Virus record (IMG/VR): IMGVR_UViG_3300027754_000035
Reading direction: 5' to 3' (one strand)
Source of the DNA: a virus
Taxonomy: Duplodnaviria; Caudoviricetes
DNA: 64,000 bases
Position numbers and translations under genes: made by a program. Positions 52,968 through 55,483 of the stretch are shown here, one piece after another (within the stretch, counting starts at the first letter, position 1; each line of letters starts with the position of its first letter). The notes under the pieces are model-generated. The model was given only the letters and a program-made list of their open reading frames with translations. It was not told where the DNA came from and searched no databases.

Positions 52968-52995
52968 AGTATACCACACGATCAAACATTGTCAA
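52968..52995 (-). promoter_or_regulatory. Sigma70-like promoter with extended -10, 16-nt spacer
   Basis: TTGACA-N16(TGTGG)-TATACT. Confidence 0.75.
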
Positions 52996-53031: not shown

Positions 53032-53108
53032 TGGTGGGCCCTGTCGGATTTGAACCGACAACCAGTTTTTTATGAGAAAACCGCTCTAACCAATTGAGCT
53101 AAGGGCCC
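53032..53108 (-). tRNA. tRNA-Ile2 (CAT, lysidine type)
   Basis: Cloverleaf GGGCCCT...GGGCCC-A-CCA; loop CTCATAA; close to E. coli ileX architecture. Confidence 0.85.
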
Positions 53109-53113
53109 TGAAA

Positions 53114-53188
53114 TGGGGAGCGGGTCCGAACTTTGCATTTCGCCTTCTGATCTGGACGACCAGCGTGCTCTCTTTACACTTGACCCGC
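53114..53188 (-). ncRNA. Degenerate tRNA-Gly(TCC)-like RNA
   Basis: Acceptor GCGGGTC/GACCCGC, U73, D and anticodon stems intact; loop CGTCCAG (G33) and no TTC T-loop. Confidence 0.6.
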
Positions 53189-53296: not shown

Positions 53297-53324
53297 ACTA
53301 TATACCACAATTCGGAACTGTCAA
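53297..53324 (-). promoter_or_regulatory. Sigma70-like promoter, 16-nt spacer
   Basis: TTGACA-N16-TATAGT. Confidence 0.7.
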
Positions 53325-54331: not shown

Positions 54332-54414
54332 TGGGTATTGAAAGATTCGAACTTTCAATGCGGATATAAAGTGACCTGTTATATTCCGCTACTACTCCAA
54401 GTAGACACATACCC
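54332..54414 (-). ncRNA. tRNA-like RNA with an extended 10-bp anticodon arm and 9-nt loop
   Basis: Acceptor GGGTAT/ATACCC; perfect T-arm GAAAG-TTCGAAT-CTTTC; arm GCGGA(A)TATAA/TTATATCCGC. Confidence 0.65.
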
Positions 54415-54424
54415 ATAAAATTGT

Positions 54425-54589
54425 AGACCGTGGTGGGATTGGATCACCCACAACTAGTTTCAAGGCTGGTCAAGCTATATCTAGCACCCGTCTGACAGAC
54501 ACGATTTGATTCAACTACACTTGGAAACCACTCCAAGTAACGTACTTCGTGCGGCCCATCATCCGTATGTCTAATTCCATTACACGGTC
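54425..54589 (-). ncRNA. 165-nt tRNA-like RNA with a large structured insert
   Basis: 7-bp acceptor GACCGTG/CACGGTC, D-like ATG-GAATTAGA-CAT, T-like GTGGG/CCCAC, internal hairpins. Confidence 0.6.
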
Positions 54590-54593
54590 AAAG

Positions 54594-54685
54594 TGGTAGT
54601 CTCATGCAGAATCGAACTGCCCAGCACCCCAATCTAGGGATTATAGTCGTTATAAGCGACCCCATGCACCTTACATCTTGAGACT
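54594..54685 (-). tRNA. tRNA with TAT (Ile AUA) anticodon and long variable arm
   Basis: AGTCTCA/TGAGACT-A-CCA; GGTCG-CTTATAA-CGACT; ~20-nt variable region. Confidence 0.78.
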
Positions 54686-54693
54686 ATTAAAAT

Positions 54694-54780
54694 TGGTAGC
54701 GGGAGAGGGATTTGAACCCCCGAGGCACTAAGGCACCACGTTATGAGCGTGGCCAGATACCGGACTTCTGACATCCCGCA
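54694..54780 (-). tRNA. tRNA (CAT) with 1:72 mismatch and long variable region
   Basis: TGCGGGA/TCCCGCT-A-CCA; CCACG-CTCATAA-CGTGG; canonical T-arm. Confidence 0.78.
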
Positions 54781-55003: not shown

Positions 55004-55158
55004 TGGTCCGACTGTTTTTTATTGAATCCTAATCCAGTCGGACGATTAGGATACCATGACTCATCCCCGCAACCAAGAAGTTTTTTAAGAGAACTTCCAA
55101 CTCTAGGGGCATTTTGGTTATTAACCCTCCACCAGACCGTTTCTTTTAAGCAACGGAC
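55004..55158 (-). ncRNA. Structured ~155-nt RNA ending in ACCA with interlocked 9-bp stems
   Basis: a-b-a'-linker-b' arrangement at 55006-55052; two upstream hairpins with CTTAAAA loops. Confidence 0.5.
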
Positions 55159-55166
55159 AAACAAAA

Positions 55167-55455: not shown

Positions 55456-55483
55456 ACTATACCACAACTTTTCACACTGTCAA
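55456..55483 (-). promoter_or_regulatory. Sigma70-like promoter of the tRNA cluster, 16-nt spacer
   Basis: TTGACA-N16(TGTGG)-TATAGT. Confidence 0.78.

Follow-up and report, generated by a model that had tools for sequence, protein, structure and literature searches.

The window analyzed here is a 64,000-nt stretch of phage DNA, in which a helicase, a thymidylate synthase, NAMPT and Prs are encoded. On its minus strand, a run of tRNA genes extends from 55326 to 54216, adjoined by genes for a SpoU methylase and for NUDIX, GNAT and HD proteins. The order within this array is Lys, Glu, Met, a class II-like tRNA with a CAU anticodon, a class II-like tRNA with a UAU anticodon, the element considered in this study, an 83-nt tRNA-like RNA and, finally, Leu-CAA, with the element being spaced like a tRNA within a phage tRNA operon. 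An earlier sequence-only reading had delimited a 165-nt RNA at this place, and the limits it gave, 54425 and 54589, stand once the strand is specified as minus. The RNA begins with GACCGUG, the 5' G being at 54589, and finishes with CACGGUC-U, the last base, a U, being at 54425. We number the RNA from its 5' end (G1 = 54589), such that RNA position p equals 54590 minus the coordinate. A promoter predicted upstream of the array (Table 1) is the probable start of a polycistronic transcript containing the RNA, and no terminator-like sites were found inside the array. Among isolated phages, no close relatives were found, and in a blastn search against GenBank phages (50,697 records), only the canonical tRNA-Lys and tRNA-Glu genes gave matches.

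Table 1 Coordinates of the RNA gene, its parts and the upstream promoter in the 64-kb window.
Feature	Position	Strand	Basis or remark
165-nt tRNA-shaped RNA gene	54425..54589	-	33 homologues at 188-203 bits with covariance model R1; 42-pair structure, 11 compensated pairs
Sigma-70-like promoter (predicted), TTGACA + 16-nt spacer + TATAGT, with TG	55456..55483	-	Upstream of tRNA array; consensus scan only, 11/12 matches
171-nt unit: leader UUU + RNA + tail UACA; junction ...GGUCUACA joined to UUUGACCG...	54422..54592	-	RNA contig of run X18, depth 133.8
Acceptor stem, 5' strand GACCGUG	54583..54589	-	Pair 3:70 is C:G, U:A or U:G; 98.7% of cells paired
Acceptor stem, 3' strand CACGGUC	54426..54432	-	Abuts T stem directly, tRNA-like
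D arm: 3-bp stem AUG/CAU and 8-nt loop GAAUUAGA	54567..54580	-	Invariant in 22/22 sequences
Long arm replacing the anticodon arm	54489..54565	-	Helices 3-5, 8 compensated pairs
Apical hairpin, invariant loop GUGGUU (54526-54531)	54518..54539	-	Helix 5
Variable-arm hairpin GCUA-GAUA-UAGC, GNRA-type loop	54474..54485	-	Helix 6
22-nt mostly invariant single strand UUGACCAGCCUUGAAACUAGUU, between variable hairpin and T stem	54452..54473	-	No supported pairing
T arm: 5-bp stem, non-canonical variable 8-9-nt loop (UGAUCCAAU, UAUUCCAGU, UAGCCAAU, others)	54433..54451	-	Helix 7

Homologues were collected by scanning IMG/VR and JGI metagenome contigs for patterns and then searching with the covariance model R1. 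This yielded 33 copies, 22 of them distinct, in 33 loci on freshwater viral and metagenome contigs. Each locus carries exactly one copy (33/33), as does G001, a complete relative genome of 295.8 kb (estimated 100% complete), and the carriers, which are uncultured giant phages from fresh water, form one clade. The position of the gene within the tRNA array is constant, but its tRNA neighbours are not: the upstream neighbour is one of four different tRNAs or non-tRNA sequence, and at least three different genes are found downstream. The known clade is narrow, with all copies being at least 83% identical, and one should keep in mind that the invariant segments discussed below may partly reflect this short divergence time. 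A pattern scan of 185,579 prokaryote genomes gave 0 matches, a looser scan of viral contigs for the 3' motif revealed no loci beyond the same six, and a flanking-protein search with a 284-aa ORF returned no relatives. A copy of the RNA was likewise absent from the SpoU-anchored loci of more distant relatives. In the distant relative L059, which was found via its SpoU gene (66% identity), a tRNA-Ile(UAU) is followed by 14 nt and then by tRNA-Leu(CAA). As the first of these tRNA genes directly precedes the second, without the RNA, the RNA is dispensable for the L059 lineage.

For the secondary structure, RNAalifold was applied to six sequences, giving 47 pairs of which 11 were compensated, and a curated structure of 42 pairs was scored on the 22 distinct sequences. 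In the curated structure, 99.2% of the paired cells hold a pair, as compared to 33-47% when the partners are slid by 1-3 columns. Double changes are seen at 11 pairs, and none of 500 shuffles gave values as high as those observed. The fold of the single sequence is not significant alone (z = -1.46), and the structural case is one that rests on covariation. The sequence-only reading had proposed a covariance model from related phages as a check of its helices, and these are conserved in such a model, except for a GTCTG/CAGAC hairpin and an arm with a CCUUGAAA loop. The 7-bp acceptor stem covaries in the 22 homologues, with C3:G becoming U:A in 10 sequences, and so does the 5-bp T stem, in which GUGGG/CCCAC becomes AUAGG/CCUAU through two double changes. 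The D stem, AUG/CAU, fits what had been proposed, and its invariance leaves no covariation.

When read from its base, the long arm consists of C:G, G:C, tandem G.A/A.G, a 6-bp helix, a 3-nt bulge and a second 6-bp helix, above which lie a large conserved internal loop and then the apical hairpin. Two of the helices recognized earlier belong to this arm, namely, GCACGA/UCGUGU, which has 3 compensated pairs, and ACUUGGA/UCCAAGU, which is the apical hairpin and also has 3 compensated pairs, below an invariant loop. The bases assigned to the GTCTG/CAGAC hairpin, however, pair at long range with UGAUGG, supplying the 3' strand of a helix in which 2 pairs are compensated (U:A/C:G and G:C/A:U alternatives). 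Relatives read GUCCAUCAGAC at this stretch, and the local hairpin cannot form. The arm with the CCUUGAAA loop (the "CCTTGAAA-loop arm") is not upheld either, as its closing G:C becomes A.C or U.C in relatives. The GCUA-GAUA-UAGC hairpin, with a closing pair of G:C, G:U or G.A, agrees with the data but is mostly invariant and thus uninformative for covariation. A 10-mer, TACTTGGAGT, that was said to be shared with the neighbouring RNA is indeed present in the window but is not conserved (L006 has a covaried stem), and the sharing is probably due to chance. While the stems vary, long unpaired stretches remain invariant, with invariant unpaired segments of 14-25 nt. Three tertiary pairings could be drawn as candidates (AAUUAG/CUAGUU, UGGUU/RACCA and GGU/ACC), yet all of their bases are invariant, leaving no covariation for or against them.

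The spacing of the RNA is that of a tRNA, with a 7-bp acceptor stem, U8 and A9, a 3-bp D stem, one base and then a stem at the position of the anticodon stem. This last stem (C:G, G:C, G.A, A.G, U:A) extends directly into an irregular rod of 77 nt. The earlier reading had treated the rod as an insert, but it is not a separate part, as it starts at the very position of the anticodon stem and is a continuation of that stem. A 4-bp hairpin with a GNRA-like loop occupies the variable-arm position and is followed by an extra 22-nt single strand, while the 5-bp T stem abuts the 3' strand of the acceptor; A14 is also present. The 7-nt anticodon loop is absent, the G18G19 elbow is lost, the T loop is non-canonical and a 3' CCA is not encoded. 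The tails are UACA, CACA, ACA, ACG, AUA or CAAA, whereas all true tRNAs of the cluster encode ACCA, and the discriminator position varies (U, C, A). Because a rod of ~77 nt replaces the anticodon loop, the RNA cannot decode. Because G18G19, a canonical T loop, CCA and a fixed discriminator have been lost, the RNA is probably neither a good substrate of RNase P or the CCA enzyme nor aminoacylated.

When the ends of the RNA were compared to 98 co-resident tRNAs, the best match was to the tRNA-Leu(CAA) genes. The D arms of the two, AUG-GAAUGGCAGA-CAU in tRNA-Leu(CAA) and AUG-GAAUUAGA-CAU in the element, differ by the replacement of GGC (G18, G19) by U. The tRNA-Leu(CAA) of the same phages shares with the element the acceptor stem followed by 2 nt, the 3-bp AUG/CAU D stem with a GAAU...AGA loop, the one base before the next stem, the 4-bp variable hairpin with a GNRA-like loop and the 5-bp T stem abutting the acceptor stem. 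The element, in contrast, lacks the anticodon loop and the CCA, has G18G19 replaced and presents a T loop of 8-9 nt and a variable discriminator. By this comparison of sequences, the RNA looks like a derivative of a class II (leucine-type) tRNA.

The array was found in many freshwater DNA runs and in six lake metatranscriptome runs, and four RNA runs were examined (X12, X16, X17 and X18). The contig that contains the element has a k-mer depth of 172 in X17 and of 134 (133.8) in X18, two runs from separate studies, as compared to 0-10 for the adjacent spacers and neighbouring tRNA-like genes, although contigs cannot give true RNA ends or levels. Because of this difference in depth between the element and its flanks, DNA carry-over does not explain the signal. 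The high-depth contig of X17 spans only RNA positions 10-124, the contig of X16 is colinear with the DNA of a relative, and in X12 the region has a depth of ~2.5, with a gap at 54490-54568. The notion that the insert might be removed from the RNA is not borne out, as RNA contigs from three lake metatranscriptomes keep the whole insert and none skips it. These runs are evidence of an RNA gene expressed in nature. In X17, an Illumina adapter is attached to the depth-172 contig precisely at 54580 (RNA position 10), so that many cDNAs end after copying position 10. Such ends could reflect reverse transcriptase stopping at U8 or A9, if one of these is modified, or could be just fragment ends.

Stable tRNA-like RNAs, namely, T4 RNA C and D, were recognized in phage tRNA clusters as early as the 1970s and, to our knowledge, no function has ever been found for either. 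In T4, rnaC (species 1 RNA, 139 nt) and rnaD are annotated at the end of the tRNA cluster. The fold of T4 RNA C comprises an acceptor-like terminal stem abutting a T arm, a long arm and a second hairpin, with no anticodon, and the role of this RNA is still unknown (PMC3014915; PMC9697503). The element resembles T4 RNA C in many respects: both lie inside a phage tRNA operon, both have a 7-bp acceptor-like terminal stem that directly abuts the T arm, both present a long irregular arm in place of an anticodon loop and a second hairpin in the variable position, and both have a 3' tail without CCA. The two nonetheless have no detectable similarity in sequence or by covariance model, with R1 scoring only 2.8 bits on rnaC. 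In T4 RNA C, a canonical T loop is kept, a D arm is absent and the acceptor stem contains two U.U mismatches, whereas the element has a D arm of the tRNA-Leu type, a perfect acceptor stem, a degenerate T loop and an extra invariant single strand of 22 nt. The two RNAs are of the same kind and are not demonstrable homologues.

The Rfam search that had been proposed as a check of novelty found no match on the element in Rfam 15, either at the gathering threshold or at E<=10, and ARAGORN called neither a tRNA nor a tmRNA at the element. The tRNA family itself (RF00005) was rejected as a candidate, since it gives no match at E<=10 and the 5-bp anticodon stem with a 7-nt loop is absent. The idea of a new class of tRNA-derived non-coding RNA holds in part. 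The RNA is tRNA-derived, non-coding and absent from Rfam, but its kind is already known from T4 RNA C, and 'new class' says too much. The element is a real, expressed and uncatalogued structured RNA whose closest known kind is T4 RNA C. tRNA-like phage RNAs seem to have been invented repeatedly by phages and not to be an oddity of T4, and the family described here adds a covariation-backed structure, a traceable tRNA-Leu origin, evidence of natural expression and separate 'chassis' and 'payload' parts. A man-made parallel can be seen in the engineered 'tRNA scaffold' RNAs of Ponchon and Dardel, in which a structured insert is said to replace the anticodon stem-loop, giving processing and stability in bacteria. 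The grafting site is the same, yet the element is natural and evolved, and its elbow and CCA are degenerate, whereas the scaffolds keep both.

The reading that we favour, with slightly better than even confidence, is that the product of the gene is a stable RNA with no decoding function, descended from a class II tRNA of the leucine type and using the tRNA body as its chassis. To a gene whose structure, conservation and presence in RNA assemblies are established, this reading adds a putative course of maturation and action. The RNA would be co-transcribed with the phage tRNAs from the 55483-55456 promoter and released from the polycistronic precursor by the same cleavages in the AU-rich spacers through which its neighbours are matured. 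Its 5' end may be made by an RNase E-type cut after the CCA of the upstream tRNA, between AC and UUU, and its 3' end may be left by trimming that proceeds from the downstream tRNA. Stacking of the 7-bp acceptor stem on the T stem, together with the D stem, is predicted to give a compact nuclease-resistant core, and the tRNA-Leu-derived body would permit both excision from the operon transcript and resistance to nucleases. The working parts would be the invariant elements, i.e., the 5' D region, the internal loop of the rod, the GUGGUU loop and the 22-nt single strand. Most likely, we infer, these elements bind a protein, with the RNA either acting on a host factor that binds tRNAs, as a mimic or decoy of these, or providing a scaffold for a phage protein. 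The invariant loops are concrete handles for pull-downs.

The X18 run offers a further observation that bears on the form of the RNA. A 201-nt contig of this run maps to 54460-54422 and then directly to 54592-54431, which is a closed cycle of 171 nt (201 = 171 + 30, with k = 31). The X18 library therefore contained molecules joining the tail UACA to the leader UUU, and the cycle could stem from a circular RNA, from RT template switching on an abundant linear RNA or from a strain with tandem genes. If read as a circle or as template switching, the cycle puts the ends of the RNA at U54592 and A54422, with the leader kept and no CCA. A 5' end after AC and before UUU fits what we take to be the preference of RNase E. 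The 171-nt form may be a precursor, and RNase P could still cleave at G1, because a U is present at position -1 and the acceptor and T stems make up a 12-bp stack.

An alternative that we regard as unlikely is that the functional form in infected cells is a covalently closed circle of 171 nt. The 5'-phosphate of the UUU leader and the 3'-OH of the UACA tail would be held by the acceptor stem, such that the ends resemble a nicked 7-nt hairpin loop, and would be sealed by a ligase, possibly a phage tRNA-repair ligase of the Rnl1 type or else a host enzyme. The product would be an exonuclease-proof tRNA mimic with its acceptor stem capped by the loop UACAUUU. The exactness of the 171-nt cycle at a depth of 134 speaks for this, as does the finding of a tandem copy or of the junction in 0 of 33 DNA loci. 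Moreover, the 3' ACA is found in 19 of the 22 variants and the 5' UUU is invariant, although UUU spacers precede every tRNA here, making the latter unspecific. G001 encodes an Rnl1-family RNA ligase (PF09511, 57 bits, 363 aa; L056:1369-2460, corresponding to 287.5-288.6 kb of G001) 8 kb from the RNA gene. Such a ligase was, however, absent from the 64-kb window and from four partial relatives, being found in G001 only, and the link between ligase and RNA is suggestive only. Neither RtcB nor a CCA-adding enzyme was found in the complete G001 genome. It should also be considered that the cycle comes from a single contig of a single run, with X17 and X16 showing none, that few reads suffice to produce the junction k-mers, and that such a cycle could come from RT template switching between abundant molecules or from a tandem gene copy in an unsampled strain. 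If the circle were true, a DNA phage would encode a tRNA mimic that is naturally circular, implying that circular RNA can arise in bacteria by a new route and that phage tRNA-repair ligases have an additional use.

For the stable non-decoding RNA on a tRNA chassis that we prefer, a role in protein binding has to be weighed against a role in base-pairing. In the latter case, which we consider rather improbable, a host or phage RNA would base-pair either with the GUGGUU loop or with the invariant single strands, namely, CCUUGAAACUAGUU or the 5' D region, the tRNA body providing stability only. The ACCA 3' ends of tRNAs could, for example, be the partner. The UGGN bulge of T-box RNAs pairs with the ACCA 3' end of tRNA, and here the UGGU of the apical loop is complementary to the ACCA that ends every tRNA of the cluster, as well as to the internal RACCA; the length of the invariant unpaired segments would also suit such a role. 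On the other hand, complementary sites for antisense pairing in the 64-kb window are not above chance (best E = 0.13), and the candidate pairings lie in invariant bases, without covariation.

That the RNA is instead trimmed, given a CCA and charged by LeuRS or SerRS, then serving in a non-ribosomal or tmRNA-like role, is very improbable. Its tRNA-Leu ancestry, with a class II variable hairpin and the equivalents of A15 and U48 kept, would be in line with charging, as LeuRS and SerRS do not read the anticodon, and a gene of the GNAT fold lies nearby. Against this stand the variable discriminator and the lack of an encoded CCA, in which the RNA differs from all of its neighbours, the loss of G18G19, and the X18 junction, where the RNA ends in UACA without CCA. 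The tRNA-like domain of tmRNA does resemble the element in having an acceptor stem, a T arm and a long helix leaving at the position of the anticodon stem. The sequence-only reading had nonetheless set tmRNA aside for want of G3:U70, and rightly so, as pair 3:70 is C:G, U:A or U:G, there is no ARAGORN tmRNA call and no reading frame is conserved. A tag frame was rejected as well, since ARAGORN finds none and a 1-nt indel in relatives breaks the only ORF. The element is about half the size of tmRNA and has neither pseudoknots nor a CCA.

Even less probable is a Y-RNA-like partner of a Ro60-type protein, in which the stem at the anticodon-arm position would dock the protein. The architecture is similar in spirit, being a tRNA-like body with a rod. 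In YrlA (RF02553), a tRNA-like module is likewise joined to a long helical protein-binding arm, and the acceptor stem of the element, if circularised, would resemble the YrlA tRNA-like domain. The segment UUGACCAGCC presumably resembles the 3' strands of vertebrate Y RNAs, UUGACUAGCC, which we take as a lead only. However, YrlA was rejected as a candidate family, as RF02553 has no match on the element, and the RNA has its termini at the acceptor stem rather than in a Ro-binding stem. The only YrlA match, a weak one, lies elsewhere, at 53052-53186. The Ro60/TROVE domain (PF05731) is absent from the complete 296-kb G001 genome even at E<=1, although a very divergent Ro60 fold could escape such a search.

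Least probable of all is that the element represents a tRNA pseudogene undergoing decay or that removal of an intron from it yields a decoder, for although neighbouring tRNA genes are reshuffled between relatives, showing an array in evolutionary flux, the 11 compensated pairs and invariant loops point to purifying selection on the whole 165 nt, the 'anticodon stem' has tandem G.A pairs, a 7-nt loop cannot be restored, the RNA contigs keep the insert and include no joint that skips it, and, as argued earlier, the insert of ~77 nt, which has no Rfam intron match, is too short for a group I intron, as such introns in tRNAs are of at least about 200 nt, possess a P3-P9 core, lie in the anticodon loop and are spliced out.

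Several other observations were made at this locus and its counterparts. In a small podophage (L011:2960-2980; also L007, L008, L012 and L014, from five metagenomes), a 21-nt segment, ATGGAATTAGACATACGGATG, exactly matches RNA positions 10-30 and is placed where a 99-aa membrane/coiled-coil ORF, located upstream of the terminase, has its start codon. These matches were rejected as homologues, as only the 21-mer accounts for the covariance model score of 18.8 bits and, downstream of it, the similarity lacks significance (172 of 2000 shuffles), and we treat the match as chance or a tiny transfer. Near-identical promoter-like sites (TTGACA, a 16-nt spacer and TATAGT or TATACT) are found three times on the minus strand of the window, at 55456-55483, 53297-53324 and 52968-52995, and every one of them precedes a group of tRNA or tRNA-like genes.

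The neighbouring RNAs also present unusual features. The 83-nt tRNA-like RNA (54332-54414, minus strand) has a 10-bp 'anticodon' arm, a fold z of -3.6 and a tail of ACAA with no CCA. It is present in part of the clade only (L002, L030, L034 and L047) and has the same acceptor stem as the tRNA-Leu(CAA) that fills this slot in the relatives L001 and L041. The class II-like tRNAs with UAU and CAU anticodons (54594-54685 and 54694-54780, respectively, minus strand) have long variable arms and are both conserved in relatives. The UAU tRNA has no Rfam tRNA match even at E<=10, while the CAU tRNA scores 38.9 bits and has a 1:72 mismatch. In one locus (L002:7054-7560), ~500 nt of extra tRNA-free sequence separates the RNA from the tRNA-Ile(UAU)-like gene. 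In two distant relatives (L063:7775-8127 and L064:9650-10000), a full tmRNA gene, with the tag GTNQLALAA, lies just 3' of the SpoU methylase gene. Finally, between tRNA-Glu and tRNA-Met, at 55059-55166 on the minus strand, a wcaG RNA motif scores below threshold (31.7 bits, with a gathering threshold of 42), and this wcaG-like region is covered by RNA contigs at a depth of 10-24.
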